Position numbers and translations under genes: made by a program
In this document: positions 495-56,588 of the stretch, piece by piece
Layout of the letters: the number at the start of each line of letters is the position of its first letter
Position numbering within the stretch: position 1 is the stretch's first letter
Source: Deltaproteobacteria bacterium
GTDB taxonomy: Bacteria; CG2-30-53-67
DNA: 64,000 nt
Assembly (NCBI GenBank): GCA_013151235.1
Contig: JAADIO010000022.1
Span: 4,256 to 68,255, forward strand
Direction of reading: 5' to 3'
The notes under the pieces: model-generated
What the model was told of the DNA's origin: nothing
The model's database searches: none
Seen by the model: only the letters and a program-made list of their open reading frames with translations

Positions 495-1646
495 ATGCAC
501 TCCTACCGGAAAGAACGGCCTGATCTCGCTCCCTATGCGGCAAGAAGTGAGCGGTCCCGGGGACGACGTTATCAGGAATCGTTCAAGGACAACCGGACCG
601 CCTTTCAGCGCGACCGGGACCGGATCATCCACTGCGCTGCCTTCCGTCGTCTTGAATACAAAACGCAGGTATTCGTCAACCATGAAGGGGACTACTACCG
701 AACCCGGCTGACCCATTCCCTTGAGGTGGCCCAGATCGCACGGGGCACGGCCCGCGCCCTCGGGCTGAATGAAGAACTGGCCGAGGCAATTGCCCTCTCG
801 CACGACCTTGGGCACACCCCCTTCGGCCATTCGGGCGAGCATGTCCTGAACGACTTGATGAAAGAGCACGGCGGGTTCGAACACAACCGGCAGAGCCTCC
901 GGATTGTGGAAGAGCTGGAGGAGCGATACCCGGACTTTTCCGGTCTGAACCTTACCTACGAGACGCGGGAAGGAATCATCAAGCACTCCACCTATCACGA
1001 CAACCCCTCCATTACGGAGATGCAGGATTATCATCCCGGCGTGGTCCCGACGCTTGAAGCCCAGATCATCAACCTCGCGGACGAGATCGCCTACAACAAT
1101 CACGATATCGATGACGGACTGACCTCGGGTATGCTGGACCGGAAGGAACTCCGGGACGCCGTCCCCCTCGTCGAACGTGTTTTCACAAAGATCGAGAGGC
1201 AATGGCCGCAAATCGACGAAACCCGAAAAAAATATCAGGCCATCAGCCATCTCATCGGATTTCTCATCAATGATCTGGTGGAGCATTCAACGGCCCTTCT
1301 GAAGGAACACGACATCCGCTCCCTGGAAGATATGCGGGAGAAGAACGTGATGATTATCTCCTTCAGCCCGGAAACCCACAGAGAGAACACGGAATTGAAA
1401 CGGTTCCTCTATCACAACCTCTATACGCACTATCGTGTCGAGCGGATGCGAATCAAAGGAAAAATGGTCCTCACCTCCCTGTTTGAGACTTACATGGAGA
1501 ATCCCACCCTTCTGCCGAAAAAATACTACCGCATGATGGAGAAGGCGGGAAAACAACGGATCATCGCCGATTACATCGCAGGAATGACCGACCGCTACGC
1601 CCTGGACGAATACAAGAAGCTCTTTGAACCTTTTGAACGGACGTAA
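495..1646 (+). CDS. dgt: dGTP triphosphohydrolase-like HD-domain phosphohydrolase
   Basis: 383 aa; HD motif region HSLEVAQIARG...LSHDLGHTPFGHSGE characteristic of Dgt-like dNTPases. Confidence 0.85.
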   Translation: MHSYRKERPDLAPYAARSERSRGRRYQESFKDNRTAFQRDRDRIIHCAAFRRLEYKTQVFVNHEGDYYRTRLTHSLEVAQIARGTARALGLNEELAEAIALSHDLGHTPFGHSGEHVLNDLMKEHGGFEHNRQSLRIVEELEERYPDFSGLNLTYETREGIIKHSTYHDNPSITEMQDYHPGVVPTLEAQIINLADEIAYNNHDIDDGLTSGMLDRKELRDAVPLVERVFTKIERQWPQIDETRKKYQAISHLIGFLINDLVEHSTALLKEHDIRSLEDMREKNVMIISFSPETHRENTELKRFLYHNLYTHYRVERMRIKGKMVLTSLFETYMENPTLLPKKYYRMMEKAGKQRIIADYIAGMTDRYALDEYKKLFEPFERT

Positions 1647-1750: not shown

Positions 1751-4700
1751 ATGTCAGTCGTAAAGATCATCACCGAATCTTCCCGGCCCGGAAAACGCCG
1801 GAGAATCCTCAATGGCATCCTGCCCTATGTACGGTCGAACCGATGTTCCGAACTCCTGATTCTCGTCCCGTCAAACCGGATGGTTGAAGAAATCCGGGAG
1901 GCCCTGCTGCAACAGGAATCGGTACCGGGGTTTCTCGGGCTCCGGCTCATGACCTTTCTGGACCTTGCCCGGGACATATTTCAAAACGGTTCTTTTCCCG
2001 GTCGGATCGGCAGTACTCCGGCCCGGCAGTGGCGGCTTCATTCCATCCTCTCCACCCTGCCCCCCCTGAAACCGTTCGGGGAGATCCGGGAAACACGGGG
2101 AATGCTTTCTCTGACCACGGATTTTATCCGTACGCTCAAGGAAGCGGGAATCCCCCCGGAAGAATTTGAAGCATCTCCGCCCGTCCGGGACAATCCGCAT
2201 CTACGGGCCTTGGGGGAAATCTACCGGAAATACGAAAAATACCGGACGGCACAAGGAATCCTGGACCGGGAGGACCTCCTCCGCCTGGCGGCGGAGGGGA
2301 TCCGGAAAGCGCCCTCCCGATCTTTCACATCTCTCCGTGAGATCATCGTAACCGGGTTTTATGACTTTACACCTCTTCAAGCAGGGTTTCTCTCCGCCCT
2401 CTCCACCCTTTCGGATTTGAAAGAACTTTCCATTTTTCTGGACGCCCCGCTCTCCTCCCCGGTCACCGTGAGGAGCCTGAAGCGGTTGCAACATTTTCTT
2501 CCCGGAGCGGAGATCCGTTCTTCCCAGAGAAAAGAGGAAACCCCGGCGAAGGCCCTGCACCACTTGCAGCAATGCCTTTCGACCCCGGCGGTAAAACCCG
2601 AACCGGTCCCCGGTGATGAGAGCATCGAGCTCCTGGAGGTACCCGGAAGGTATCGCGAAGTGGAGGAGATGGCCCGAAGGATCCGGGAACTTCACAAAAA
2701 ACATGGACTTTCCTTCCATGATATGGCGGTCGTCTTCCGGAACCTCAGCGACTACCGGGAAAAGGTCCGGGAGATCTTCCGCTCTTTCGGAATTCCCCAT
2801 CAACTGACTTCGGGCCTGCCCCTCAGGAACAATCCTCTGATCAGGACCGTAACGGCACTGCTGGAATGTCCCCGTTCCGGATACCGTCGCGACGCAGTCT
2901 TTCGTCTATTGGCTTCTTCCTATCTCCGTTTCGAACCTCTTGAACGGAGCACGATCACACCGGAACGGATCGACACCCTTGCGCGGGAGGCCATGATTCA
3001 GGGGGGGCGCGATGAATGGAAGATGCGCCTCAAGTCACGGCTGGATCTACTCACGACCCGAGAACAGTACCTGCAGGAAAGCTACGGAACCGACCGGGAC
3101 GAAAAAGGACACAAGGAGAGGATCGACCGGTGCCGTTCGAAAATCAAGGATTACAGGAAATGCATGGATGTGCTGGAGAGCTTCTTTGACCTCTTTGCCG
3201 ATCTTCCGTCGGAAGCCACGATCCCGGAATTCATCGAACAGCTGGAGCATCTCCGGAACACCTTTCACCTGAAAGAACAGATCTACGAAAGAGACGATCT
3301 CGATCTGGTTCACCGGGACCAGACCGCCTTCCGAGAGTGGCAGGAACTTCTCGAACAGCTCTCCCGGGAACAGATGGGGTTACAGAGGGTCTCTCTTGCC
3401 GACTTCGTCCGGCTCCTCTCTCTCACGCTGGCGGAAAAGAACTACTCCCCCGACCCTCCGCAAGAAGATGCCGTCCTGGTGACGGACGCACTCGGCATCC
3501 GGGGGCTTTCCAGACCGGCGGTTCTGATCGGAGGATTGGTGGAAGGAATCTTTCCGCGGAACCATTCCCCAAGTCCCCTTTTCAGCGAATCCGACCGGCA
3601 ACGGCTCAACAAGCATTTCGGCCCCAACCGATGGATCCCCCTGCGCTCCCAGCAGCGGGAGGAAGAGGACCTCTTTTTCCGTTTTGCCGTCGGCGCCGCC
3701 GAACATTTCCTGATCCTCTCCCGTCCGAGGACCGACGGGGAAGGACACCCCCTCCTCCCCTCCAGCTACCTCGACATCCTCGGTGCCCTTTTCTCCCAAA
3801 GGATCAAGGTCACTTGCCGCTACTTGAACGATCCTTTACCCTCGGAAGACCCTCTCACGAACGAAAAGCCGCTATACCGTCCCGGCGAACTGCTCGAGTA
3901 TACCTTCCGGGCCCTCTCCCGTCCCGTCACGGAGGAACCGGATTTTCCCTCCCTCCTGAAGCTCCTTCTCCGGGAGCGGTGGGAGACCTGTCGTTCCCTC
4001 TGCCACGGCCTTACAGTGCAACAGGCTCGCAAAGAAGTAAACGGAAGCTATCTGGGACATCTCGGCCCCGACGCAGCCCGCGGAATCCGGCAGGGAGAAG
4101 GAAATTACTCCGTCACGGCCCTGGAACGATACGCCGCCTGTCCCTTTCAATACTTCTGTGAACGGGAACTCAAACTTCGCCCCGTGGAGGAAGTGGAGGA
4201 AGAGGTGGGAGCCCTTGATCTGGGAAGTCTCTATCACCGGATCCTGGAACGTTTTTTCCGTGAGATGGAGGGGCCGGTCACGAAATCCGCCCTTGCCGCC
4301 GCCCGAAAGAGGCTGGACCGGATCGAGAAAGAAGAACTGGCCCGGGTGGAAAAAGGGGGAATCCCCGGCCACCGGAAAATCTGGGAGATTCGGCAGACAG
4401 AGATCCGGGATGTCCTGGACCGTTTTCTTCTGGATGAAATAGAGGCCTTTGAATCAACGGGAGAAATCCCCTCCCATTTCGAAGTAACTTTCGGGATGAA
4501 GGATGTCTCCCGGAGAGATCCCCTCTCCTCGCCGGATCCGCTGATCCTTCCTTCGGAATCGGGCGAAATCCGGATGGAGGGAAAGATCGACCGGATTGAT
4601 CTGAAGGACGGGGAACCGCCGCACTTTTCCATCCTCGACTACAAGACGGGCGGCAGTAAACCGCCGGGGCCATCGGGAATCGAAAAGGGGGAAACCCTCC

Positions 4701-4975
4701 AACTCCCGGTCTATGCCGCGTGGGCGCTGGGGGCCTTCGCCGACGGCCGGGAACTCGGTCATGCCTCCTTTGTCCTGCTCCGCAAAGGGAGCAGGAAATG
4801 CCTGATCAATCCGGCCGGGCAAGGCCGGCAGGAGTGGAAAGAAATCTCCGAACGGTATGTCCGAAACTATGTCGAAGAGATCCGGCATGGACGCTTCCCC
4901 CCGGGAGAGAAAAACTGTCCCCCTTACTGTCGATACGGAGAGATCTGCCGGAAAGGTGAAAAGGGTCGGCCATGA
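1751..4975 (+). CDS. AddB/RexB-like PD-(D/E)XK nuclease with helicase-like N-terminal region and C-terminal Fe-S cysteine cluster
   Basis: 1074 aa; C-terminal ILDYKTG nuclease motif and four Cys (CPFQYFC ... CPPYCRYGEIC) as in AddB iron-staple nucleases; degenerate Walker-A-like N-terminus. No AddA partner adjacent. Confidence 0.7.
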   Translation: MSVVKIITESSRPGKRRRILNGILPYVRSNRCSELLILVPSNRMVEEIREALLQQESVPGFLGLRLMTFLDLARDIFQNGSFPGRIGSTPARQWRLHSILSTLPPLKPFGEIRETRGMLSLTTDFIRTLKEAGIPPEEFEASPPVRDNPHLRALGEIYRKYEKYRTAQGILDREDLLRLAAEGIRKAPSRSFTSLREIIVTGFYDFTPLQAGFLSALSTLSDLKELSIFLDAPLSSPVTVRSLKRLQHFLPGAEIRSSQRKEETPAKALHHLQQCLSTPAVKPEPVPGDESIELLEVPGRYREVEEMARRIRELHKKHGLSFHDMAVVFRNLSDYREKVREIFRSFGIPHQLTSGLPLRNNPLIRTVTALLECPRSGYRRDAVFRLLASSYLRFEPLERSTITPERIDTLAREAMIQGGRDEWKMRLKSRLDLLTTREQYLQESYGTDRDEKGHKERIDRCRSKIKDYRKCMDVLESFFDLFADLPSEATIPEFIEQLEHLRNTFHLKEQIYERDDLDLVHRDQTAFREWQELLEQLSREQMGLQRVSLADFVRLLSLTLAEKNYSPDPPQEDAVLVTDALGIRGLSRPAVLIGGLVEGIFPRNHSPSPLFSESDRQRLNKHFGPNRWIPLRSQQREEEDLFFRFAVGAAEHFLILSRPRTDGEGHPLLPSSYLDILGALFSQRIKVTCRYLNDPLPSEDPLTNEKPLYRPGELLEYTFRALSRPVTEEPDFPSLLKLLLRERWETCRSLCHGLTVQQARKEVNGSYLGHLGPDAARGIRQGEGNYSVTALERYAACPFQYFCERELKLRPVEEVEEEVGALDLGSLYHRILERFFREMEGPVTKSALAAARKRLDRIEKEELARVEKGGIPGHRKIWEIRQTEIRDVLDRFLLDEIEAFESTGEIPSHFEVTFGMKDVSRRDPLSSPDPLILPSESGEIRMEGKIDRIDLKDGEPPHFSILDYKTGGSKPPGPSGIEKGETLQLPVYAAWALGAFADGRELGHASFVLLRKGSRKCLINPAGQGRQEWKEISERYVRNYVEEIRHGRFPPGEKNCPPYCRYGEICRKGEKGRP

Positions 4976-11181: not shown

Positions 11182-11658
11182 TTATTTTTCTCCGGACTGC
11201 CGCCCCCGGACTTGAATAATCTCCTGCAGTTCATGCATGAAATCTTCGATATCCTTGAAGGAACGATAGACCGAGGCAAACCGGACGTAGGCAACATCAT
11301 CGGTCTGATGGAGAAGGGACATGATCTCCTCGCCGATCTCCCCGCTTGCAATCTCCTTTTCCATCCGCTCCTGGAACTTCCGCTCGATCTTGTCCACCAT
11401 CGACTCGATGGTGTCCATACTGACCCCCCGTTTCTGACAGGCCTTGACGATCCCGTCCCGGATCTTCTTCCGGTCGAAAGGTTCCCGGCGGTTGTCTTTC
11501 TTGATCACCATCGGAAGGATTTCTTCCACCCGCTCGTGGGTGGTGAAACGGCGTTCGCACTGCAGGCATTCCCGACGTCGACGGATGACATCTCCTTCGC
11601 GCCGCAGGCGCGAATCGACGACCTTGTTCTCTTTGTGACCGCAGAACGGACATTTCAC
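11182..11658 (-). CDS. nrdR: transcriptional repressor NrdR
   Basis: 158 aa; MKCPFCGH...[10 protein letters not shown] zinc ribbon plus ATP-cone. Confidence 0.9.
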
Positions 11659-11668
11659 GGGAGCCTCC

Positions 11669-12172
11669 TCAAGGGACTTCCCCCACTTCCGAATCGTGCC
11701 ATTGGATCAACTCCACACCGGCTTCCGCCAGCATCTCACGGGAGAGTAAATCCGGATAATCACCTTCGTAATAAATCCTGCGAATCCCTGCATTGATAAT
11801 CATCTTCGAGCAGATCATACAGGGAAGATTGGTACAGTACAGATCGGCGCCTTCGATACTGATCCCATGCTTGGCGGCCTGAATGATGGCGTTCTGTTCC
11901 GCATGGAGGGCCCGGCAGAGTTCGTGCCGCTCACCGGAGGGGACATTCATCTGTTCCCGGAGACAGCCGATTTCAAGGCAATGACGAGTCCCCGAAGGGG
12001 ATCCATTGTAACCGGTCGTCAGGATATTCTTATCCTTGACGATCACCGCACCGATATGACGGCGCAGGCAGGTGGAACGGCTCTTCACCATATGGGTGAT
12101 GTCCATGAAATATTCTTCCCAGGAGGGACGCTTCATATTCCTGAGGGCTCCGGTAAAGAGATGATCCTTCAT
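11669..12172 (-). CDS. dCMP/CMP deaminase (zinc-dependent)
   Basis: 167 aa; HAEQNAI...[14 protein letters not shown] cytidine/deoxycytidylate deaminase zinc-binding motifs. Confidence 0.8.
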
Positions 12173-13476
12173 TCCGCCAGCCGGTCGGTATAGACGGGGA
12201 AATTTTCGTTCAATTGCGCCACCTCCTGACGCACCGACCGGACAACCTCCTCCGAATCGATATTCTGCAAAACCCGATCAATAAAATCGACAATCCTGCG
12301 GGCCTCCTCCTCCTTCATTCCCCGGGTCGTAATAATCGGCGTCCCGATCCGGATACCGCTGGTGATGGTCGGCGGCGCCGTATCGAAGGGAATTACATTC
12401 TTGTTCAGCGTAATTCCGGCACGATCCAACGCCTTTTCGGCCCGGTCACCGGAAATCCCCGTCTCACTGAGATCAACCAGCATAAGATGGTTGTCGGTCC
12501 CCCCGGAGACAATTCTGTACCCCCGATCCTGCAGCTCCTCCGACATGGTCCGGGCATTCTTGATGACCTGCGCCTGGTACTCCCTGAAGGTCGGCAGCAT
12601 CGCCTCTTTCAGGGCCACGGCCTTTCCCGCGATGGTGTGCATGAGAGGCCCTCCCTGCATGCCGGGAAAAATCGTATGATCCAGAGCCCGACCGAATTTC
12701 TCCTTGCAGAAAATCATCCCCCCCCGGGGGCCGCGCAGGGTCTTATGCGTCGTCGTCGTTACGAAATCGGCAAGCGGCGTGGGGTTGGGATGGAGCCCCA
12801 CCGCGATGAGGCCTGCAATGTGGGCGATATCCACCATGAGATAAGCGCCGACCTCGTCGGCAATACTGCGAAAAGCATCAAAATCTATCGTCCGGGAATA
12901 GGCCGATGCGCCGGCAACAATCATCTGCGGACGAAGCGTCCGGGCCGTCTCCCGGACCTCGTCGTAATCGATCCGTCCGGTTTCACGGGAGACCCCGTAG
13001 GAATGGGACCCATAGAGTTTGCCTGAAATGTTCACGGAGGCTCCGTGGCTCAGATGCCCCCCGTGAGAGAGCGACATCCCCAGGATCTTATCCCCCGGTT
13101 CGAGTACGGTCAGATAAACCGCCAGGTTGGCCGAGGTCCCGGAGTGCGGCTGGACATTCACATGCTCGGCACCGAAGATCTTCTTCGCCCGGTCGATCGC
13201 CAACTGTTCCACACGGTCCACGTTCTCGCAGCCGCCGTAGTAGCGATGCCCCGGATACCCCTCAGCGTACTTGTTCGTCATCACCGACCCCTGCACATCG
13301 AGGACCGCTTGACTGACGTAGTTCTCCGACGCGATCAGAACAATCTGTTCATTTTCCCGGAGGGCCTCATCCCGCAGGGCATCCGCCACTTCCGGATCCA
13401 ATTCTCTTAACAATCCAAGACCTTCTCTTTCGTCACTTCGACTCAAAACCACAGATCTTTTCGACACGCCGGGCAT
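12169..13476 (-). CDS. glyA: serine hydroxymethyltransferase
   Basis: Strong SHMT similarity ([23 protein letters not shown]-lysine region [13 protein letters not shown]). The ORF-track start overlaps rpiB by 44 nt, so the true start is probably an internal GTG/TTG near 13410-13452. Confidence 0.9.
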
Positions 13477-20048: not shown

Positions 20049-20137
20049 TCTTCACTCCTCGAAAGAACCACCTGGATTCATGCAGTAATTCACATATCGT
20101 AATCGACCGAACAGTGGTTGTCAAGATACAAAGCCCT

Positions 20138-20971
20138 TCAAAACCGGCTCGCCGCAACGGACTGAGCCCGGCCGGCACGTATCGGATTTCGCTGCTCCAT
20201 CGTTTCCAGGGCATCCCGGATCAGCTTGCAGTTCGGATACTCCCGAAGGTATTTTCTGCCCAGCCGGATCCCTTCGGCATCCGTCCCTTCCCGTTCCGCC
20301 AACATGACCAGGGCGATCTTGGCGGCCGGCACGGCATAGTGTCCCTGTTCAAGCGCCTGCCGGATCTCCGCCAGCCCCTCCTCGCGCCGGTCCCCGACAA
20401 AGGGGAGAAACCATAGATAGCGGGTCTTGACACTCCGATAATATTTATAGAGCCCCGTGGCGAAGGCAATATCGTGGATTCCCGGATCGAGTGCGGCAAC
20501 CTTGTGGATCTGTGAAAGGGCGCGCATCCCGTGCAGGAAGGCTGAAAAGTATCGTCGGTGATTCAACTCATAAAGCCCCCGCACCCCGAGGGACCCTCCC
20601 AGCAGAAAATGATCCCAGGCATTTAAGTTCCCCCGCCGTTCCAGTTCCTTCATCCGAGCTTGATTCTTCGGAAATTCGGCGGCAAACTCCTCTTCCAGCC
20701 GGGCCTTCGGGGCCCCCTTCTCCAGGGATTGCACCATGAGACTGAGCAGCCGTCCCATGCTCGGAAGGAGGGAGCCGGGATCGTTCTTTTCCATCCGGTC
20801 AAAGAGTGCATCCGCCTCCCGGTAGCGCCGGTCCATGACCATCGACTCCGCCGTCAGGATGGTCCGATCCTGTTCCGGGGAGAGATAAGGAGCGGGGAAA
20901 GTCCCGCCGAAAGAGACGGAAGGGAATACGAGAAGCAGGAGGATAAGTACCCCGACCGACCGGCCGGACAC
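20138..20971 (-). CDS. hypothetical secreted protein (GTG start)
   Basis: Signal-peptide-like VSGRSVGVLILLLLVFPSVSF begins at GTG 20971 with GGAG 5 nt upstream. The ORF-track extension to 21112 runs through an AT-rich promoter region. Confidence 0.5.
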   Translation of the reverse strand: MSGRSVGVLILLLLVFPSVSFGGTFPAPYLSPEQDRTILTAESMVMDRRYREADALFDRMEKNDPGSLLPSMGRLLSLMVQSLEKGAPKARLEEEFAAEFPKNQARMKELERRGNLNAWDHFLLGGSLGVRGLYELNHRRYFSAFLHGMRALSQIHKVAALDPGIHDIAFATGLYKYYRSVKTRYLWFLPFVGDRREEGLAEIRQALEQGHYAVPAAKIALVMLAEREGTDAEGIRLGRKYLREYPNCKLIRDALETMEQRNPIRAGRAQSVAASRF

Positions 20972-21000
20972 TCTTCTCCAAGCCGCACATTTTCCGGCCG

Positions 21001-21021
21001 ACTTATCCACATATTGTATAT
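21001..21021. repeat. 21-bp perfect direct repeat, copy 1 (ACTTATCCACATATTGTATAT)
   Basis: Identical 21-mer recurs at 21101-21121, exactly 100 bp away, in the AT-rich region upstream of the 20971 GTG start. Confidence 0.8.
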
Positions 21022-21100
21022 AAAATGTGGAAAAACACCATATATAGGAGAACCTCTTGAGGAAAAGTCGAACGATATTCAGGGGTTGGAGAAAGAAAAA

Positions 21101-21121
21101 ACTTATCCACATATTGTATAT
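21101..21121. repeat. 21-bp perfect direct repeat, copy 2
   Basis: See copy 1. Confidence 0.8.
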
Positions 21122-21149
21122 GATTTGTTGAGAACCCTACATATAGTGT

Positions 21150-21644
21150 TTAAAAACGTTCATGACGATCCAGATATACCACTCCCCCATGGATATCTCC
21201 ATCATCAATTTCAAGAAACCCAACGGAAAGGGACCGGCCGTCGCGCATATTCCCTGCCGTACCGGGATTAAAAAAGAGGATCCCGCCGATCCGCTCATTG
21301 CAGGGATGGTGGGTATGGCCGAAGACAACCACATCGGGCCGGACCTGCTGCAAACGCTCTTTCAACAACCGGGGGGGGTGCTTCGGGTTCCCGACCCGGT
21401 GGGTCACCAAAACCCTTTTCCCCTCCAGAGGCACCATACGAAAGCGGGGCAGAGGGTCCGGGGTAAAGGGGGGATCCATATTCCCTCGTACGGCTATGAC
21501 TGGCGCGACCTTTTGCAACCGCATCAGCAGTTGCGGCGACTCGATGTCGCCGGCATGAAGGATCAGATCAACCCCGTCGAAGAGTGCCGGAATCGAGTCG
21601 GGGAGATTGTTGTGAGTATCCGATAAAACACCGATCCTCATCAT
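21150..21644 (-). CDS. metallophosphoesterase (YfcE-like)
   Basis: 164 aa; GDIES, GNMD, GHTH calcineurin-like phosphoesterase motifs. Confidence 0.8.
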   Translation of the reverse strand: MMRIGVLSDTHNNLPDSIPALFDGVDLILHAGDIESPQLLMRLQKVAPVIAVRGNMDPPFTPDPLPRFRMVPLEGKRVLVTHRVGNPKHPPRLLKERLQQVRPDVVVFGHTHHPCNERIGGILFFNPGTAGNMRDGRSLSVGFLEIDDGDIHGGVVYLDRHERF

Positions 21645-26895: not shown

Positions 26896-28407
<1,512 letters not shown>

Positions 28408-28947
28408 CTACCCCTTTACAAGTTGTTCCTTTAACTTGATCATCGAAGACTTGATACTTCCGTCATAGACTACGCTTCCGATCCGGGTCACGGCCCCGCC
28501 GATCAATGCCGGGTCTTCTTTCACTTTCAGATAGATACGTTTCCCGGAAAGGGCCTCCAGTTTCGCCTGCAGGTTTTTCTTATCCTCTTCCTTCAAGGGC
28601 AAGGCCGTCGTAACTTCCGCCTTGGCCCGGTTGTGAATCTCATCGGCAAAACGGACATATTCCCGGTAGATCTCCCTGATTATGGGAAATCGGTCTTTCC
28701 CGATCAGAAGGCGCAAAAACCGCTTGAGAAGACCGCTGACCCGGATCTCGTCAACCACCATGTCAAGAAGCTTTCCTTTGTCTTCATTATTAAAGACCGG
28801 ATTGAAAAAGAAGTTCTTCAACTTTCGATTTTCGACAACCGTCTTGACGATTGTACCGAATTCTTTTTCCACCTGATCGGCTATCCCTTCCTGCGTGGCA
28901 AGATCGATCAGTGCCTTGGCATACCTTCTGGAAACGACGCTGCTCAC
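28408..28947 (-). CDS. atpH: F1 ATP synthase delta subunit (OSCP)
   Basis: 179 aa; position between atpF and atpA; delta-like helical N-domain. Confidence 0.8.
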   Translation of the reverse strand: MSSVVSRRYAKALIDLATQEGIADQVEKEFGTIVKTVVENRKLKNFFFNPVFNNEDKGKLLDMVVDEIRVSGLLKRFLRLLIGKDRFPIIREIYREYVRFADEIHNRAKAEVTTALPLKEEDKKNLQAKLEALSGKRIYLKVKEDPALIGGAVTRIGSVVYDGSIKSSMIKLKEQLVKG

Positions 28948-28956
28948 AAAGGTCTC

Positions 28957-29559
28957 CTATTTCAGCCCGGCGATATATTCATCCATGAACCGCCGATGGT
29001 CCCCGGGGGTCAGTTCCTGAACCAGTTTCTCTTCGGAGAGCTTCAGGGCCAGTTCGACGGCTTCCCGTTTTAAGGTCTCGCGGGCCTTCTTCATCTCCTG
29101 TTCAATCGACTCCTTCGCTTTCTCCTCCATCCGTTTTGCCTTCTCATGGGCCTCGGCGATCAAACGCTCCTTCAGCTTTTCCGCATTCTCTATCGCCTTC
29201 TTCCGGATATCGGCAAACTCTTCGTCCCGGTTGGCAAGGCGATCGGAAAGCTCCCGATACTTCGCTTCAGCCTCTTCCTTGCTCTTCTTCGCCTCTTCCA
29301 GGCTTTTCAGGATCGCCTCCCGCCGACCGGCAAAGAAGTCCCGCATCGGCTGGGCAAGAAACTTGTAAAGCAGAATTGCGAGGACGGCAAAATTGACCAC
29401 CCGCCAGAACATTTCCATAGAGAGAATAGGAACTACCTTTTCCGCCCCCCCTTCGCCGGCAGCCCATAGAACGGACGCGGTCCCGACCATCATCAGACCT
29501 GCGATCAGGATTTTTGCTGCAACACGCATCTTCGGCATCTTCATCCAACGGCAAATCAT
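28957..29559 (-). CDS. atpF: Fo ATP synthase subunit b
   Basis: 200 aa; N-terminal TM then a long charged coiled coil. Confidence 0.8.
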   Translation of the reverse strand: MICRWMKMPKMRVAAKILIAGLMMVGTASVLWAAGEGGAEKVVPILSMEMFWRVVNFAVLAILLYKFLAQPMRDFFAGRREAILKSLEEAKKSKEEAEAKYRELSDRLANRDEEFADIRKKAIENAEKLKERLIAEAHEKAKRMEEKAKESIEQEMKKARETLKREAVELALKLSEEKLVQELTPGDHRRFMDEYIAGLK

Positions 29560-29987
29560 GAGAGGGTCCTTCCCAATATCTTCGAAGAAATTTCCAGAGA
29601 GAGAGTCTTCACGGATTTTTCCAATTCAATTTTTGCAGCATCAACGCTCTTCTCCAGTTCCCCCATCCCCCGATCAATGATCTTTCCCACCTCCTTCTGC
29701 GCGGCGGAAAGGATTTCCTTCTCCCCGGCAAGAGCGGCGTCATATGCCTCGTTGAAGGCAACCTTGGCATCCCGCTTCGCCTCCTGAAGGGCACGGGCAT
29801 ATTCTTCGTTCAGCTTTTCCATATTTCGTACGGCACCGGCTGCATCACCGGCCGCACCCTCAATGATACCCTTCCGGTCGTCCAGGACCTTCAGTATGGG
29901 TCGATAAAGAAGAGAATTCAGGATCGCCATCAGGATCAGGATCAGGATAACGGCAGGAACAATCACATGAAGATTCAGTTCAATCAC
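29556..29987 (-). CDS. Fo ATP synthase subunit b'
   Basis: 143 aa; a second b-type subunit (TM plus coiled coil), overlapping atpF by 4 nt. Confidence 0.75.
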   Translation of the reverse strand: MIELNLHVIVPAVILILILMAILNSLLYRPILKVLDDRKGIIEGAAGDAAGAVRNMEKLNEEYARALQEAKRDAKVAFNEAYDAALAGEKEILSAAQKEVGKIIDRGMGELEKSVDAAKIELEKSVKTLSLEISSKILGRTLS

Positions 29988-30179
29988 GTTCGATTCCTTT
30001 GTTCAGGATGATCTTCTGGGTTTGCATGATCGCCCGGTAACGCTGGTAAGGGGCCAAACTGAAAAAAGCTTTGGGACATTAGCATATTCTAAAATGGATT
30101 GTCAAGGGCATTTAACGAAAAAAACAATACCGCTGATTTGGCAAGCTAAACAACACGGAAACAATAAATTTCATCTTTC

Positions 30180-30452
30180 GTTTTTCGCAACCTTTACCTT
30201 TCTGAAGTTACTAACTCAGACGACAGATGCGTTTTTTGCTGAACCGTTCTTCTTGACAGGGAAGGAAATCGGTAGCTTGACGGAATCGCGCCCTTTTCGG
30301 AGGGTACGGAATTAATCATCCTCAAGAAAAAAGCCCTCGATACGATCGTCCGGAAATACCCCGAAATCGGCATCAAAATTATCCGGAAAATCAGCCGCGT
30401 GGTCTCGATCCGGGCACGAACCTCCGGAGACCGTCTTACAAAAATATTTTAA
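30180..30452 (+). pseudogene. frameshifted remnant of a cNMP-binding-domain gene (paralog of 5551-6024)
   Basis: Frame-3 translation 30276-30452 TELIILKKKALDTIVRKYPEIGIKIIRKISRVVSIRARTS aligns with AEIVILSNRNFEKLLSKHPMLGLKLLKHIFLTTSARLRRT of the intact gene. The upstream part (GKEIGSLTESRPF) lies in frame 1, so a frameshift sits near 30300; there is no start and no N-terminal half. Confidence 0.55.
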
Positions 30453-30623
30453 GTTTCAAGATGTTCGGAAAAAGCAAAAAAAAGTTGACAGCGCAATCCG
30501 AATTTGATAAAAAACCATTCATATATTAGAATTTGTGAAAATTTGTTTGTCCTCATCCGTTACTTATAATCAAACCGGTTCGTTACGTCAAAGATATTCG
30601 AGCAGGCAGTAAGGAGAAAAGAT

Positions 30624-31013
30624 ATGTACGATTCGGGTAAGGTTCTCTTGGGAATTATTATCTTTCTGGTCATGGTAACTTTTCCGCTTTACTACAACAT
30701 CGGAAGAGCCGATATCAAACCGGAGCCCGACCTGAACACCCTCGCCATACGGAAAATGGCGGTCAAACAGTGCATCGAAAAAACCCCGTACATGCGATCC
30801 AACCATATGAAGCTTCTGAAAGGTTGGATGGATGGCTTTCTCAAGGACGGAACCATGGAGTACAAGGCCGGTAACGGCAAAACATACGAAACCTCTTTCG
30901 ACACCTGCATGGAATGTCATGCAAGCCGGAAAAAGTTCTGTGACACCTGCCACAGCTATGCCGGGGTACAGCCATACTGCTGGAAATGCCATTCCCTGGA
31001 TGACGAGGGGTGA
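30624..31013 (+). CDS. small membrane-anchored tri-heme c-type cytochrome
   Basis: 129 aa; N-terminal TM helix; three CXXCH motifs (CMECH, CDTCH, CWKCH) packed within ~30 residues at the C-terminus. Confidence 0.75.
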   Translation: MYDSGKVLLGIIIFLVMVTFPLYYNIGRADIKPEPDLNTLAIRKMAVKQCIEKTPYMRSNHMKLLKGWMDGFLKDGTMEYKAGNGKTYETSFDTCMECHASRKKFCDTCHSYAGVQPYCWKCHSLDDEG

Positions 31014-46598: not shown

Positions 46599-48812
46599 TC
46601 ACCGATCGGCATGAGCCCAGGCAACGGCACGGTCGTAGTCCTTACCGATCGGCGTGCCGCGATAGTTGATGTTACGAGCGAGCAACGGAACGCCGGCAGG
46701 CGTGGTGCGATGGCACGCGCTGCACTCCACGGGTCCGGTGGAACCATCCGGGTTGTACTGGACCGCCTGCTGCGGCGACACCTCGTCATTGCCCAGGGGA
46801 TTGACCGGGAAAAGGCCGTGGGCCGCCTGATGGCACCCCTGGCAGGTGATCCCGGCATGGGCACTCGAAAAACGCATCAGACTGTATTTCTGTGGTTGAT
46901 CGACGGGGAAAAAACCACCCCCCATCGATTCCACAAAGGGCGGAGCGTGACAGTCGGCGCAATGCGGCAGACCCGCTGAAAACCAGTAATCCTTGCTGCC
47001 GGAGACATCACCATAAGAGACAGGAACGGCACCGTCCACTGCCGTTGCCGACACCGTGCCGTCTTTCTTCCGGTACCCGAGCGGTGCCCCTTTGCCCCGC
47101 TCCCAGGTAGCTTCGTTCCTGTCCCGCCCCTTCACTACCTTCGGGTCCAGGTAGCGGTCGATAAGCTGCTGCACGTCACCGCCGGTGAGTACCGCAGCAA
47201 TTTCCGGGATCGTTTTATTCCGCAATCCCGCTCCCGCGCCCGTCGCCGTATCGGTCAGCCGGTCCGCCCGGTAAAGGGCAATGGAAAGTCGGTTGTGACA
47301 GTGCGTGCAATAGAGCCCCCGGTCCTTGCCCTCCTCATCCCAGACGGTATCAAGGTACCATTTCCCGATCGCGTTCAGGTGACTCTTTGTGTGCAGTTCG
47401 GCCGCCCGGTACGGGTTTGAGTGGACGTCGCGGCCGGTGTAACTGCCTGCGGCATCCCGGTTGTCCCCCTTCGCGTACCGGTTGGCGCCATCCCGGGTAA
47501 CGGGGAAACGATCGAACCGACCCGCATCCGAGTGGGCCGGGTGGCACATCTGACAGTTCCCGGGCCGCCCCCCGGCGTCCGGAGCGGGCATCACCTCGGC
47601 ATGTTTTCTGTGTATCGCCTCGGTCAGCGACAACCGCGCCCGCACCTTCGAGTCGGCAATATTGGTCATGGGGCTGTCGTTCATCCGGAGACGACCGATG
47701 ACGTTATCCGCGTGGCACGAGGGACAGAAAACCGTCTGGCGACCCAGGCGGTTGAGGCTCGAGTTGTTGCTGTAGTTCCAGGTAAAATGGGTCTGCTCGT
47801 CCTTGTCGTGAAGTTCGAGGATGGAAATGGCCGCCGCCTGGGTGGTGGAGAAATGCTCGGTAGAATCACTGTAGGTCTTCAGCCAATAGCTGTATTCCGC
47901 TCGGTACTTCTTCGCCCGGTCGCCGTTCGCACGCTTCGTGCCATGGCACCGATCACAGGAGGGAGCATCGACGGGGATTACCCCCATGGCGGTCATGACA
48001 CTGCCGTCACGATCCATCACGAAACGGCCGGCTTTGTCCCGCAAGGTGATGATCACCCGCTGATAGGGCTGGTACTCCACCTCCTTGCCCGAACGGAGGC
48101 TTTTGTTTCCGCGCGAGTAGTCGAGGTAGGGAGTAAGCGGTAACCCTACGGCATCCCACAGATCAGGCGGAGCGAGGGGGATCGGGATATCGGTCGTGTC
48201 GTTTTCTCCGTCAACGAAAAAGCGTACGCCGCTCTCGCCGGTATAGTGAAGACTACGATCACGCTTCAGAATCGGCGGCCAATCAGTAATGCGCCGGCCG
48301 GTGATCCCATGGTCGTCATCGGGAGGGTGGGTATTCCAGACGTAAATGCGATCCTTCGCCGTCGCCCCGGCCGGTCGGACGCCATCGGGCCGACCGTAGG
48401 TATAATAGGGACGGATGAACTCGACCGGTGGCTGGTCGAAGGGATCGAGCCGCTCCCCGTTCCGGTCAACATCATACTTGACCCCCCAGTAGGAAAGCTT
48501 GTTGCCGGAGGAATAGGAATTTCCCTGAAAACCGAACTCGGGCTGCACACCGTCCGTCGGGGTCATCAGTTTCGGCGGCGTCCCGTCCGATCCTTCCGTA
48601 CGGATTACCTGTACCTGCACGCTGTTAAAGGGAGGCAGGGCGGCCGTATATTTGAAATCGAAGCTGGTGATGTGCATCCCCAATTCCGAATGGATCAGGA
48701 TTACATAACGGTGCTGGGGCTCATGGAACTCTTCCAGGGCAGGTGCCCTAACCGGAAACAACGCAACCATGCCCAGGAACAGCAGGACAATCCTCGTGCA
48801 ATAAGCGCTCAC
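46599..48812 (-). CDS. 7-heme c-type cytochrome with N-terminal non-heme domain (paralog of the 1662-aa cytochrome)
   Basis: GTG start overlapping the PPIase stop (GTGA); signal peptide; CXXCH motifs CDRCH, CPSCH, CQMCH, CTHCH, CADCH, CQGCH, CSACH. Confidence 0.85.
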   Translation of the reverse strand: MSAYCTRIVLLFLGMVALFPVRAPALEEFHEPQHRYVILIHSELGMHITSFDFKYTAALPPFNSVQVQVIRTEGSDGTPPKLMTPTDGVQPEFGFQGNSYSSGNKLSYWGVKYDVDRNGERLDPFDQPPVEFIRPYYTYGRPDGVRPAGATAKDRIYVWNTHPPDDDHGITGRRITDWPPILKRDRSLHYTGESGVRFFVDGENDTTDIPIPLAPPDLWDAVGLPLTPYLDYSRGNKSLRSGKEVEYQPYQRVIITLRDKAGRFVMDRDGSVMTAMGVIPVDAPSCDRCHGTKRANGDRAKKYRAEYSYWLKTYSDSTEHFSTTQAAAISILELHDKDEQTHFTWNYSNNSSLNRLGRQTVFCPSCHADNVIGRLRMNDSPMTNIADSKVRARLSLTEAIHRKHAEVMPAPDAGGRPGNCQMCHPAHSDAGRFDRFPVTRDGANRYAKGDNRDAAGSYTGRDVHSNPYRAAELHTKSHLNAIGKWYLDTVWDEEGKDRGLYCTHCHNRLSIALYRADRLTDTATGAGAGLRNKTIPEIAAVLTGGDVQQLIDRYLDPKVVKGRDRNEATWERGKGAPLGYRKKDGTVSATAVDGAVPVSYGDVSGSKDYWFSAGLPHCADCHAPPFVESMGGGFFPVDQPQKYSLMRFSSAHAGITCQGCHQAAHGLFPVNPLGNDEVSPQQAVQYNPDGSTGPVECSACHRTTPAGVPLLARNINYRGTPIGKDYDRAVAWAHADR

Positions 48813-50650: not shown

Positions 50651-53600
50651 TTACGGGTTCGACAAGGCACCCACATGGCAATAACCGCACGAGTTTGTCA
50701 TCCCCGCAGGCGTGGTATCTCCCGCAGGATCGGGGTCACCGTTTGCAGCCAGATCGGTCCTCATGGCATCTACGAACTCCGTGGTCACCACGTCGAAGGT
50801 ATGGGAGTGGATATCCCCCTCACGGTACTGGTTCGAACCATCCGTGAGGGAGTTCTCCCACCGCGCCGTTTTGGCCGTCTTCGGCATATGGCAGTTGGTG
50901 CATCGCCCCATACCGCTACCCACCGGATCATAGGTCATGTAACTCATAGTACTGTTCACCCACTTCCCTATGTGACGCATCACCTCGGAGGCGATCGTGG
51001 CCTCATCGGTCGGGGTCGTGGTCCCGGCGGCAAGATCATCCGCCATCGACTGGGTAACAAACTGGAAGTTCGCAGGATCGGCGCCTTCCAGGCTTTCGTC
51101 CGGAGTCGTTTCACCCGCACCCGGTGCTCTGAGGGAACTGTTGTGACAACCCAGGCAGAGAGCGTTGTTATCACCGTTGGCAGTGAGCTGATGCTCTTCG
51201 ACCACACCGGCGGCACTGGGACCGCCATGAGCGTCATGACAGTCGATACAGGTCACCATCTCCATGTCGTTCTTGTACATCGTCGTACGCACCACGTCGT
51301 AGTACTGCTGGTGGTGGCCCTTCGAATGGTTGAAGGAACCGGTCACCTGCGTTACATTCCCCGCCGCAGTAGAAGTCACGAAGGGGTTGGCCGACTCATA
51401 ACCGATATCCTGCCAGCTATGGTGATCGGTGGTATAGTCGATCGCCTCCCAGTATCCGCCGACGGTCCCGAAGTCGGGAGCCAGGCCGGTGCCGTCTGCG
51501 GTGCCGTAGTACTCGGCGGGACTCATCCCCGGCTTGAAGACCGTAATCGCCGGATCGACAGTGAGATCTCCCACGGAAGCGAAGCCCGCATGAGCGCCGC
51601 TTGAATCAAGGACGCTGTGACCGTGACCGCGCTGGTGACAGGTGCCGCAAACCATCGTCAGACGTCCCGGAGTCAGAAGATCCGGCTGGACGATATTGTA
51701 GCCCTCGCCGCCGTTTGCCACATGTTCGGAACCCGGACCGTGACAGCGCTCGCAGCCGATGTTGCCGGCGTAGACGTTGGACGCGACCTGGTCAATGTAC
51801 TGGGTGATGAAATTGCCGTTGCTATCCTTGGTAATGCCGACACCGCCGTGGCAGCCGGCGCAGTCAACACCAAAGGACTCGGTGGGTGCACCCGTAGGCG
51901 TCGTACCAAGGCCTGCGGGTGTAAAAACGTCGGCACCCATGGTGGTCGGTGTGGACCACTTACCGGAGAACTCACCGTTCTCCCCGAAGGCAGCGGGGTC
52001 GGATCCGGACTCGTTCCACTGGAACGGAGCCGGATAATAATAGGAGGAACCGCCGGCCTGCACGTGCGCCGTTCCCGGCTCTCCATTGGCGCCGACAAGA
52101 AGCATGTAGCGCTGCTTGGCAACTCCCTCACCGCCATAGGTGAAAGCAACGTTGTACGTAGCCGAAAGGTTCCCGCTGCATGTGGCGTTATCCGCCATCT
52201 GCATTGTGGGCGTACCCCCCGAGTAACCCAGCTTGGCGTAATGGGTGTTGCCCTGGGCGGAGAAGCTAATGCAGTCGCCATTGGCGAATGCCGCCAAGCC
52301 ACCATCAGCGTTGGCTGCCCAACTCGTCATATCCTGCAGACTGTTGGCCATCGTATAGCCGGGGTTGGACGGATCCGGAACGCGGAATCCGAGGAAGTGA
52401 AGGGTGTGCTTCAGCGAACCCTTCGCATGGCACCCAAGACAGGTAGACGAACCGACGTAGGTCGCCGAGGTGGACGGTGTCATCGAAATCGTGATGTCAC
52501 CGAAGGCCGGCATGTTGACTACGTGGCCGTTGACCACCTTGAGAGTTTCACGCCGAGCCCACGGCAGGTGTGCCGTATCGCTCCCCGCAGGGATGACGCA
52601 GGCATAGTAATCACCGTCGGCCAGCGGCACACCATTAAAATTGTAGCTGCCATCAGCTGCGGTGGTCGCAAAACCGCCGTTGGAATTGGACCCGCCGATC
52701 ACTGCGTTGGCGACATCCTCAATCGGCTGAATGGAACTGCTCGCCTCCACATCGGCAGCAGAAACAAAGACCACGGAGGCATTGGCAACCTTCGCCGTGG
52801 AGGTATCAACGACCGTACCGTGAAGTGCAAGACCGGTCATATTATTGTGATTGGCGCAATCGTCGTTGGCCGGGGCTTCCGGAATCATCGTGCGCCCGTA
52901 GCCGAGCGGCAGGCCCAACCCGTTGTCGGTTGCGTTTCGTTCGACCGTCGGCAGGGTACTCCTCGCGTCCCGCACGGTATGCATGTAGATCACCGCCAGG
53001 TCATAGTTGGTGCCGATCGTTACGCCGTTCACCTTCTTCTTCGCCGCGACTGTCGGTACACCGCCGTTGTTGGTCACGTGACATGCGCCACAGGTAACGG
53101 GACCGTGCGAACCGTTGGCATTATACTGGAGCGCAGCGTTGCGGGTCGTCGGATCGTTCAGCGGCGACACCGGGTAGAGCCCGTGGGTCGACTCGTGACA
53201 CGACTGACAGGCGATCCTCTCGTGACCCTTGGAGTGGCGCATGAGGGCGTACTTGCCGGGCTCGGCCCAGGGCGGATTCATCCCCTGGGACTCGACAAAT
53301 GGATACGCGTGACAGTCGGCGCAGTGCGGCTCACCCGCAGAGGCCCAGAAGTCACTCCCGTCGGTCACCACACCGTAGGGGACACCGGGGACAACTTCGC
53401 CGCCCATCCCCTTGTACTGGTAGTGGTCATTGGTATCATCAATCACCGTCTCACCGCCGAGTTCGGAGGCAATATCCACTGCTTCCTGCTCGGTCAGCGG
53501 CGTATCGACACCGCCGAACATCAGGCCTTCGGCCGCAGCGTTCTGCGTGGCAACCAGGAGGTCTTCAGCCGATTCGCCGGCAATCGCAGGTCCCAGTCCA

Positions 53601-55639: not shown

Positions 55640-55655
55640 GGAAGCTCCTTTCATT

Positions 55656-56588
55656 TTACACATGGTGCCCTCCTTTCCCACCTGCACGACGACGAAGCCC
55701 CAACAGGCCGAAAAGCCCGGTCGCCAGGAAGACGAGGGACGAAGGCTCGGGAACCATTGCCGTGGTGGTAAGGGCGTTAAGATTGTCGCTCGACAACAGA
55801 CCCAGGTCCGCGGCCGTGATGGCGACATTCGAGGTGTTGTTCAGAAAAAGGTCCGCGGCCGATCCGTAGCCGGAGGCGGAAGCCAGCGAAAACAGAACAT
55901 CTCCCGTAACAGCATCAATGGCCAGCGCGTCTAAGTCCTGTCCCTGCTCAATACCAAGCGACGCGGCAGTCCGGAAGATGTTACCAAGACTGTTGAGATA
56001 GATGTTCCCATCACCGGCAAGGGAGAAGTAGACATCCCCGTCCTGACCCGGAACATAAGGTGCGGCACCGAGATCCACGGCATCGAGATCATCATTGTTC
56101 TGTCCGTAAGCGCTATCGTTCAGACCGTAGTCCTCACCATAAGTATCCGCAAAGTTGACCCCCGCAAGCTGGCCCGGGTTGGCGTCGAAAAGCGTCCCCA
56201 TCTGCCGACTGGTCGAGGCCTTCCATGCCACGTCCGTGCCCGAAGCGCCCTGGCTGTTCGCATCCACCGAGAAATAGACGTCGTAGATGCTTGCGGGATC
56301 AGCACTGTCAAACCCGAAGGAGAGGGCGTCGATCTCGTCGGCCGCGGACAATCCGAGATCGGCCGGCGTCAACGCCACGGTGTTGGTGCCGTCGAGCGGC
56401 GTATCGAAGAGATGGGCGCCGTCCGGACTGGTGCTGTATACGTCATTAGGCATATTCGTTCCGGGAGCAACGCCGATCCCGTCATTGAGCACCGAGAAGG
56501 TGTCGGCCCGGCCGATCGCCGGAAGAGCGAAGATACAAATCATTGAGACAACCGCCAGAAGGCGGAGCCTTAACCCATAACATTTCAT
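55656..56588 (-). CDS. PEP-CTERM sorting-signal protein 1 (Asp-rich secreted protein)
   Basis: C-terminus VPEPSSLVFLATGLFGLLGLRRR (PEP motif, TM, basic tail); signal peptide from ATG 56588; 16-bp gap to the cytochrome start. Confidence 0.75.
   Translation of the reverse strand: MKCYGLRLRLLAVVSMICIFALPAIGRADTFSVLNDGIGVAPGTNMPNDVYSTSPDGAHLFDTPLDGTNTVALTPADLGLSAADEIDALSFGFDSADPASIYDVYFSVDANSQGASGTDVAWKASTSRQMGTLFDANPGQLAGVNFADTYGEDYGLNDSAYGQNNDDLDAVDLGAAPYVPGQDGDVYFSLAGDGNIYLNSLGNIFRTAASLGIEQGQDLDALAIDAVTGDVLFSLASASGYGSAADLFLNNTSNVAITAADLGLLSSDNLNALTTTAMVPEPSSLVFLATGLFGLLGLRRRAGGKGGHHV

Follow-up and report, generated by a model that had tools for sequence, protein, structure and literature searches.

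NrdR is the repressor that normally controls the DNA-precursor (ribonucleotide reductase, RNR) genes, and DnaA is the replication initiator, which recognizes the DnaA box, TT(A/T)TNCACA, degenerate at positions 3 and 5. In E. coli, the nrdAB promoter combines DnaA 9-mers with a pair of NrdR boxes. An NrdR site consists of two partially palindromic 16-bp boxes separated by a linker of 15-16 bp, or of 14 bp in T. maritima nrdJ; the key positions of a box are C4, A6, A8, T9, T11, and G13, and the linkers are constrained in length only, their sequence not being conserved (PMC13584703). Linkers of 26-27 bp are tolerated in NrdR operators. Repression is exerted by dATP/ATP-loaded NrdR tetramers that block the promoter, and the residues that contact DNA have been defined as D15 and R17 (PMC9110341). 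Two NrdR pairs 113 bp apart are found at Listeria monocytogenes nrdAB (PMC13584703), where the distal pair has been proposed to make repression tighter. The literature regards NrdR as RNR-specific and uses its operators to define regulons and antimicrobial targets; the only validated non-RNR target that we found in the literature is P. aeruginosa topA, which has a single box. Several high-affinity intergenic DnaA boxes off the origin, some of which regulate neighboring genes, are known from the B. subtilis DBCs and from E. coli datA and DARS. In the DARS core, boxes I and II are in opposite orientations with a 5-bp gap, and box III lies beside II in the same orientation.

The element described here, from a group of uncultured Nitrospirota, has something in common with each of these systems. 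Like E. coli nrdAB, it appears to bring both sensors to one promoter, with an NrdR linker of 15 bp and the DnaA box TTATCCACA. In E. coli (MG1655), however, the two DnaA boxes are direct repeats that lie separately, 50-70 bp upstream of the NrdR pair, whereas here they are embedded, one kind overlapping NrdR box 2 and one lying in the linker, and convergent; in addition, the unit is duplicated and the target is not an RNR gene. As at Listeria nrdAB, there are two complete NrdR pairs ~100 bp apart (99-100 bp, against 113 bp in Listeria), but the Listeria pairs serve an RNR operon, DnaA boxes have not been reported for them, and it is the present element whose inter-pair distance is invariant across 15 species. 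At P. aeruginosa topA, too, NrdR acts outside the RNR genes; there it activates, while the element here has four boxes in two pairs and a repressor-type overlap with the predicted promoter. In comparison with the DBCs, datA, and DARS, there are only three strong DnaA boxes, and these are interleaved with another regulator's operator. The parts, and the presence of NrdR and DnaA together on one promoter, are therefore already known; what is new is the non-RNR target, the way both motifs overlap in a single site, and the duplication with its almost indel-free, clade-wide conservation.

The intergenic region at positions 20972-21149 of the window, the whole 64-kb stretch of DNA analyzed here, is 178 bp long and lies between two minus-strand genes. 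At 37% GC it is AT-rich, as a previous sequence-only reading of this DNA had remarked; the same reading put the genome at 60% GC, which is above the ~56% of the window. An exact search of the window confirmed that the 21-mer ACTTATCCACATATTGTATAT (+ strand) occurs at the two positions reported before (Table 1), with a start-to-start distance of exactly 100 bp. There is no third copy in the window, and a search of the 64 kb at up to three mismatches gave 0 further matches, with 0 expected in shuffles. The likeness between the copies outruns 21 bp: a stretch of 34 nt matches at 85%, and a 14-nt block at offset 99 matches as well, so it is a module of ~47 bp that has been duplicated. Both copies and their 100-bp spacing are kept in 15 species-level loci in which the neighboring secreted TPR-like protein is only 50-86% identical to that of the window; the repeat is thus far beyond chance and under selection.

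These loci were collected in two steps. The 18-bp core TATACAATATGTGGATAA was scanned against one genome per GTDB species, which gave 28 matches in species representatives. Six were in Nitrospirota metagenome-assembled genomes, one match each, and all six share the neighborhood of the window as judged by tblastn (DEAD helicase, thioesterase, phosphoesterase, element, TPR-like gene, pgk, tpiA, ECF sigma); the remaining matches were in unrelated AT-rich taxa and mostly within genes. Further loci found through homologues of the protein brought the set to 15 distinct species-level loci. Over these, ~155 bp can be aligned without gaps when the alignment is anchored on one box, the sole exception being a 2-bp insertion in the distal linker of one locus (L001). 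The element stays with the TPR-like gene in L016, from which the phosphoesterase gene is missing, and in L036, where pgk is not downstream. The distance between the two NrdR pairs described below is invariant across the 15 species, and the 18-mer is identical in most of them at NrdR box C. We rejected a dispersed repeat or IS end, the possibility that the sequence-only reading had itself raised against its proposal: the 18-mer is found once per related genome, always at the orthologous locus. The regulon that was to emerge from genome searches with the repeat is likewise not definable, because the exact core motif is restricted to this one locus in each genome sampled.

Table 1. Predicted sites and genes of the composite element, with positions in the 64-kb window
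Feature	Sequence	Position	Strand	Remarks
Repeat copy 1	ACTTATCCACATATTGTATAT	21001-21021	+	core is NrdR box C
Repeat copy 2	ACTTATCCACATATTGTATAT	21101-21121	+	core is NrdR box A
NrdR box D (distal box 1)	ACACTATATGTAGGGT	21134..21149	-	6/6 key positions; PWM 20.7, best in 64 kb
NrdR box A (distal box 2)	ATACAATATGTGGATA	21104..21119	-	6/6 key positions in 15/15 loci; PWM 10.3, joint 3rd
NrdR box E (proximal box 1)	CTCCTATATATGGTGT	21035..21050	-	6/6 key positions in 15/15 loci; PWM 16.4, 2nd
NrdR box C (proximal box 2)	ATACAATATGTGGATA	21004..21019	-	6/6 key positions in 13/15 loci; PWM 10.3
A', degenerate DnaA-like 9-mer	TTCTCAACA	21126..21134	-	in 14-bp distal linker; weak or uncertain
DnaA box A	TTATCCACA	21103..21111	+	overlaps NrdR box A positions 9-16 plus one base; fits TTNTNCACA in 15/15 loci
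DnaA box B	TTTTCCACA	21026..21034	-	first 9 bp of 15-bp proximal linker
DnaA box C	TTATCCACA	21003..21011	+	fits TTNTNCACA in 13/15 loci
Candidate -35	TGGTGT	21040..21035	-	last six bases of box E; TTGTGT in several relatives
Candidate -10	TACAAT	21018..21013	-	positions 2-7 of box C
Conserved block between the pairs	CAAC	21085..21088	-	invariant
nrdR		11182..11658	-	Pfam Zn_ribbon_NrdR 5e-20, ATP-cone 6e-24
Regulated gene (predicted), secreted TPR-like protein		20138..20971	-	277 aa; GTG start; GGAG 20979..20976; signal peptide
Upstream gene, Metallophos_2 phosphoesterase		21150-21644	-	

On the gene strand the layout is NrdR box D, 14 bp, box A, 53 bp, box E, 15 bp, and box C, with the two pairs 99-100 bp apart; box D abuts the stop codon that ends the upstream phosphoesterase gene. 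All six NrdR key positions are satisfied in 56 of 60 sites (four boxes in each of 15 loci), and these six are exactly the columns that stay conserved in every one of the four site classes. The proximal linker (E-C) is 15 bp in all loci, while the distal linker (D-A), 14 bp or, in L001, 16 bp, is at the edge of the known range, in which 15-16 bp is usual. Between C4 and G13 the mean A+T content is 0.71-0.88 (75-88% in the window's own boxes), against a criterion of at least 63%. No pair of this kind other than D-A and E-C exists in the 64-kb window. Shuffling of the whole window gave 0 NrdR pairs; in shuffles of the intergenic region at its local composition, the probability of at least one pair was 5e-5, and two pairs never appeared.

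We also scored the 64 kb with a PWM that was built solely from ten E. coli and S. coelicolor boxes with experimentally shown binding and so is independent of the six-position rule. Its four best sites are D, E, A, and C, and the two pairs reach 31.0 and 26.6, whereas the next-best pair apart from them reaches 17.6. Of the 16 positions of E. coli nrdAB box 1 CCCCTATATATAGTGT, 14 are shared by box D and 14 by box E; boxes A and C score slightly lower than the weakest training box (training range 11.4-19.4). The pair that scored 17.6 (20408-20453) is inside the coding region of the TPR-like gene, and we dismissed it because its boxes match just 5/6 and 4/6 key positions and it falls on the codons for YKYYRSVKTRY. 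The window also contains an nrdR gene, in a glyA-dCMP deaminase-nrdR cluster 9.5 kb from the element; its product retains the DNA-contacting residues D15 and R17 and is presumed to be the trans-acting repressor. NrdR binding would account for boxes D and E, for the left halves of boxes A and C together with their T9, T11, and G13, and for the fact that the boxes are paired and the pair duplicated. We conclude that the NrdR layer of the predicted operator is very probably real. The anatomy of the box pairs supports the earlier proposal that tandem operators lie in the promoter region upstream of the gene for the secreted protein. The 21-mer, however, is not the free-standing site of a dimeric regulator that it had been taken for, but box 2 of a two-box NrdR operator, with the partner boxes D and E 14-15 bp upstream.

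The rest of the conserved sequence points to DnaA. The 21-mer contains the consensus DnaA box TTATCCACA, and the right half of NrdR boxes A and C, with one further base, reads TGTGGATAA. Positions 10, 12, 14, 16, and 17, invariant in A and C and free to vary in D and E, are outside the reach of the NrdR explanation and spell the DnaA box. DnaA boxes A and C are the only perfect DnaA boxes in the 64 kb and, together with the single-mismatch box B, all lie within 110 bp. Over the 15 loci, 43 of 45 sites fit TTNTNCACA, and the three boxes stand at 0, +77, and +100 in every locus. Box A varies at position 3 only. Box B fits TTNTNCACA in 15/15 loci: positions 1, 2, 4, 6, 7, 8, and 9 never change, whereas every base occurs at positions 3 and 5, and in L002 and L031 the box is a perfect TTATCCACA. 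NrdR does not explain box B, because NrdR linkers are not conserved in sequence (PMC13584703) and box B is wholly within the linker. Boxes B and C converge across a 14-bp gap, with the third box 68 bp away, and this convergent geometry (TTNTNCACA-N14-TGTGNANAA) occurs once per locus. Three or more such DnaA boxes never arose in 20,000 local shuffles. In the distal linker, the 9-mer A' retains T1, T2, A7, C8, and A9, usually has A in place of C6, and is a perfect TTATCCACA only in L032. On these comparisons we consider the DnaA layer likely to be real.

The palindrome CCACAT-N12-ATGTGG that had been noted around copy 1 is present in the sequence; it consists of the convergent DnaA-type boxes C and B. 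Changes in box B are not compensated in box C, so it is neither a hairpin nor a single symmetric site. A structured RNA element was rejected, since the arms do not covary and an Rfam search of 18-24 kb gave no match at E<=1. The strongly conserved blocks of the alignment are covered by known motifs, with one exception: the CAAC block (Table 1), which stands out by column entropy and consensus from the otherwise variable stretch between the pairs.

A candidate promoter, TGGTGT-16-TACAAT, is found inside the proximal pair and is the only candidate for the TPR-like gene. A consensus promoter scan returned nothing at the element; the candidate is weaker than the scan threshold, and for this reason its assignment is one that we infer. 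The sequence-only reading had already picked out the TACAAT on the minus strand, which is the most plausible -10 element of the secreted-protein gene, but its distance to the GTG at 20971 is 42 nt, not ~30. With this candidate, transcription would start at about 21006, giving a leader of 35 nt in which GGAG precedes the GTG. DnaA box C would then span the start site, as judged from the position of the candidate -10, and box B would lie in the promoter spacer if the candidate promoter is correct. A promoter of its own, TTGACA-N17-TACGAT, is present upstream of pgk and conserved in relatives, which indicates that TACNAT-type -10 elements are used in this organism. Since pgk and tpiA are probably served by that promoter, the operator would chiefly govern the TPR-like gene. 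The distal module has no credible -35, and its -10 is variable (CACAAG or GCAAGA in some loci), which makes an auxiliary operator more likely than a second promoter for the distal pair; of the duplicated promoters that had been suggested, only the proximal one is likely. By-eye readings for sigma-54 or ECF-type promoters around the CAAC block, for a + strand promoter, and for DnaA-trios beside the boxes produced none that was fitting or conserved.

Taken as a whole, the sequence evidence inclines us to read the element as an RNR-type composite operator of NrdR and DnaA that has been recruited to a non-RNR gene. The reading draws on motif identity, geometry, deep conservation, statistical excess, and an nrdR gene whose DNA-reading residues are intact. 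It counts against this reading that the downstream gene is neither an RNR gene nor nrdR, while NrdR has been described as RNR-specific (PMC9110341). Further points against it are the scores of boxes A and C, the weak -35 of the candidate promoter, the 14-bp length of the distal linker, and the stop-free reading frame described below. In the scheme that we propose for binding, the sign of regulation, the position of the promoter, and the interplay of NrdR and DnaA, the two tandem NrdR pairs would form the operator, with a DnaA box over the outer half of A and of C (each a box 2) and another in the proximal linker; the proximal pair would cover the promoter, probably sigma-70, of the secreted TPR-like gene. 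As dATP rises, dATP/ATP-loaded NrdR tetramers would occupy each pair, bend the DNA, and exclude RNA polymerase, and the distal pair, at its fixed distance of 99-100 bp, may tighten repression as proposed for Listeria nrdAB. DnaA on boxes B and C, which flank the -10 and the start site, could impose a second, initiator-dependent repression, and it probably rivals NrdR for the shared bases. Expression of the gene would thereby be coupled to replication and to dNTP status, as in ribonucleotide reductase genes.

If the composite reading is true, a conserved, duplicated NrdR operator before a non-RNR gene would be a clear expansion of the NrdR regulon, and the overlap of NrdR and DnaA sites would be a new integration of two replication-linked inputs that are separate in E. 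coli nrdAB. We put forward a more specific proposal tentatively, judging its chances as slightly short of even: that in this clade the NrdR regulon extends past RNR to an envelope protein by way of a hybrid NrdR/DnaA site, in which a 17-bp stretch serves both as NrdR box 2 and as a consensus DnaA box and a further DnaA box occupies the linker. A dNTP sensor and the replication initiator would then compete or cooperate on the same DNA, in a compact two-input switch for replication status that has been kept almost indel-free across the clade. Because NrdR from E. coli or S. coelicolor accepts heterologous boxes and DnaA boxes are near-universal, the uncultured host is no obstacle to testing in vitro.

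The alternative that holds up best, although we think it unlikely, is that the NrdR pairs are real and the DnaA matches incidental. GTGGATAA would then be a lineage flavor of box 2, and the conserved linker TTNTNCACA would serve promoter-spacer geometry or some other factor. Validated NrdR boxes may indeed end in ...GTGG, as at S. coelicolor nrdRJ, and NrdR by itself already fixes T9, T11, and G13 in box 2. Reading GTGGATAA as such a flavor would weaken the DnaA overlay at boxes A and C but not at box B, which lies in the linker and yet has 7 of 9 positions invariant in 15/15 loci, the two free ones being just those at which the DnaA box is degenerate. Even in box A, among the bases that NrdR leaves free, variation is confined to DnaA position 3, and boxes D and E are under no like constraint at positions 10, 12, and 14-17.

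The converse, that DnaA alone is at work, at a regulated promoter or at a titrating or remodeling box cluster like the B. subtilis DBCs, E. coli datA, or DARS, and that the likeness to NrdR operators is coincidental, is improbable. DnaA clusters outside oriC are well known, and the three boxes here are of high quality and exactly conserved geometry; boxes D and E, however, contain no DnaA box and are nonetheless the two best NrdR-PWM matches in the 64 kb, at the canonical 14-15 bp from A and C. Nor does DnaA explain the conserved blocks ~30 bp upstream of each repeat or the conserved ACAATA flank 5' of TGTGGATAA, which, as ACAATAT, fits NrdR positions 3-9. A DARS- or datA-like locus was rejected on geometry, as the opposite boxes of DARS are 5 bp apart with a third box alongside, and boxes B and C here are separated by 14 bp with the third box 68 bp off.

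Slightly less probable still are duplicated promoters, or tandem operators of a lineage-specific dimeric regulator that reads the 21-mer or the palindrome. The perfect 21-bp identity within this genome and the inverted repeat at copy 1 would suit such a regulator, but copies in other species differ outside the NrdR and DnaA positions and the arms of the palindrome do not covary; the distal -10 is not conserved either.

A reading frame runs through the element. From the ATG in box A it is stop-free in 13/15 loci (null ~0.35 per locus; naive p ~0.003) and in frame with the TPR-like gene in 13/14, which the composite-operator model does not account for. If that ATG were the true start, the protein would have 324 aa and the conservation would be that of an N-terminal peptide, and many database entries do begin with MWI.... 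We nevertheless consider a coding element very improbable. Entropy at codon positions 1/2/3 is 1.07/1.30/1.26, which is not coding-like, and the five codons in the 18-mer show no synonymous change in most species, the loci that differ (L031, L032, L040, and L041) doing so by amino acid. The 18-mer is kept even where the neighboring proteins are merely 50-60% identical, while the peptide is of low complexity and varies nonconservatively. The signal peptide would become internal, and the NCBI annotation has the GTG as start. Even if the element were translated, the DNA-level motifs would still be there.

That consensus DnaA boxes cluster in AT-rich intergenic DNA might recall a replication origin (oriC) or a fragment of one, but we give this next to no credence, as the region is only ~130 bp, GC skew stays negative to either side of 21 kb without turning, there is no switch of gene orientation, the window contains no dnaA signature, and no extended AT-rich unwinding element or trio repeat lies beside the boxes.

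The gene that the composite operator would govern is unusual as an NrdR target. NrdR operators are expected upstream of an RNR operon or nrdR; here the TPR-like gene is followed by pgk, tpiA, and an ECF sigma gene, and no RNR domain was found in the ~30 larger ORFs of the window scanned against Pfam or among the Pfam-annotated called genes of the related loci. The secreted protein itself gave only subthreshold Pfam matches, to FlgM and TPR_14. It is restricted to the clade, with 26 homologues among 5.8 billion proteins. Its AlphaFold model is all-helical (pLDDT 77.5), and a fold search of the PDB with this model returned generic TPR matches only, with no informative neighbor. From its predicted operator, this lineage-specific secreted TPR-like protein is probably tied to replication or the cell cycle. 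Several gene callers place the start of the protein within the operator (MWI...), and one copy carries the label FlgM at NCBI; these starts and this label are probably wrong. A 24-codon ORF on the + strand of the intergenic region (21058-21132), with AGGAG, is probably a chance occurrence.

A minus-strand reading frame (20972-21112) that opens at an ATG in box A of the NrdR-type operator runs through the element without stops in 13 of the 15 loci compared and is in frame with the gene for the secreted TPR-like protein in 13 of 14. Many database entries of this protein therefore start within the operator, with the residues MWI. The sequence of the frame does not behave like coding sequence. An antisense ORF of 24 codons, with a TTG start preceded by AGGAG, crosses the distal part of the element (21058-21132, plus strand); it is probably there by chance.

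The stretch between the two box pairs is otherwise variable and contains an invariant CAAC block, which is similar to the -35 element of ECF-type promoters; alignment of the related loci revealed no conserved -10 element after it. A good match to a sigma-70-type promoter is found downstream of the TPR-like gene, and the same TTGACA-N17-TACGAT arrangement is kept in the related loci L001 (position 10989), L002 (1403), L008 (1656), L037 (4028), and L038 (4005). Given its place in the gap before pgk and its conservation in relatives, pgk-tpiA is probably served by this promoter of its own.

Features of the window, with strand and context
Feature	Position	Strand	Remarks
Multihaem cytochrome, very large	46599-48812	minus	737 aa
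Multihaem cytochrome, very large	50651-55828	minus	1725 aa
Invariant CAAC block	21085-21088	minus	mostly as CCAACCCCT or TGCAAC; between the two box pairs
Sigma-70-type promoter, TTGACA-N17-TACGAT	20096-20124	minus	89-bp gap from TPR-like gene to pgk
glyA (SHMT)-dCMP/cytidine deaminase-nrdR cluster	11182-13476	minus	

Within the TPR-like coding region itself, a further NrdR-like pair with a 14-bp linker lies at 20408-20453. Its score with the NrdR-box matrix is weak (17.6), and its boxes keep five and four of the six key positions. The pair coincides with the codons for YKYYRSVKTRY, the most conserved peptide of the protein, and for this reason is probably a by-product of coding.

A protein identical to the product of this gene (P0001, 20138-20971) carries the NCBI name "flagellar biosynthesis anti-sigma factor FlgM," and the source MAG is labelled Deltaproteobacteria by NCBI. 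Since P0001 scores 20.6 against Pfam FlgM, below the cut-off of 25, and has a TPR-like fold, and since the relatives are labelled Nitrospirota, both the protein name and the MAG label are probably wrong.

The neighbours of nrdR are genes of nucleotide and one-carbon metabolism, not an RNR gene, and a scan of the window for box pairs found none upstream of the glyA-deaminase-nrdR cluster. A further dNTP/DNA-metabolism gene in the neighbourhood encodes an HD and HD_assoc protein, a dGTPase-like dNTP triphosphohydrolase (495-1646, plus strand), and adjoins the gene for an AddB-type PD-(D/E)XK nuclease/helicase (1751-4975, plus strand).

Both multihaem cytochromes have Cytochrome_C7 and MtrC/MtrF-like domains, and their neighbours encode a PPIase and a DUF1573 protein; the region is a candidate locus for extracellular electron transfer. 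The upstream end of the ATP synthase cluster (∼28000-31000) shows a drop in GC to 0.49, together with a strongly negative GC skew (-0.19).

Two unrelated matches to the 18-mer core of the 21-bp repeat lie inside dense DnaA-box arrays, one at ∼480-520 in L025 and the other at ∼4300-4450 in L029, from a Bacillaceae MAG. The L029 array comprises at least five DnaA boxes beside an apparent rlmH-like gene start, an arrangement reminiscent of the yydA DnaA-box cluster of B. subtilis.
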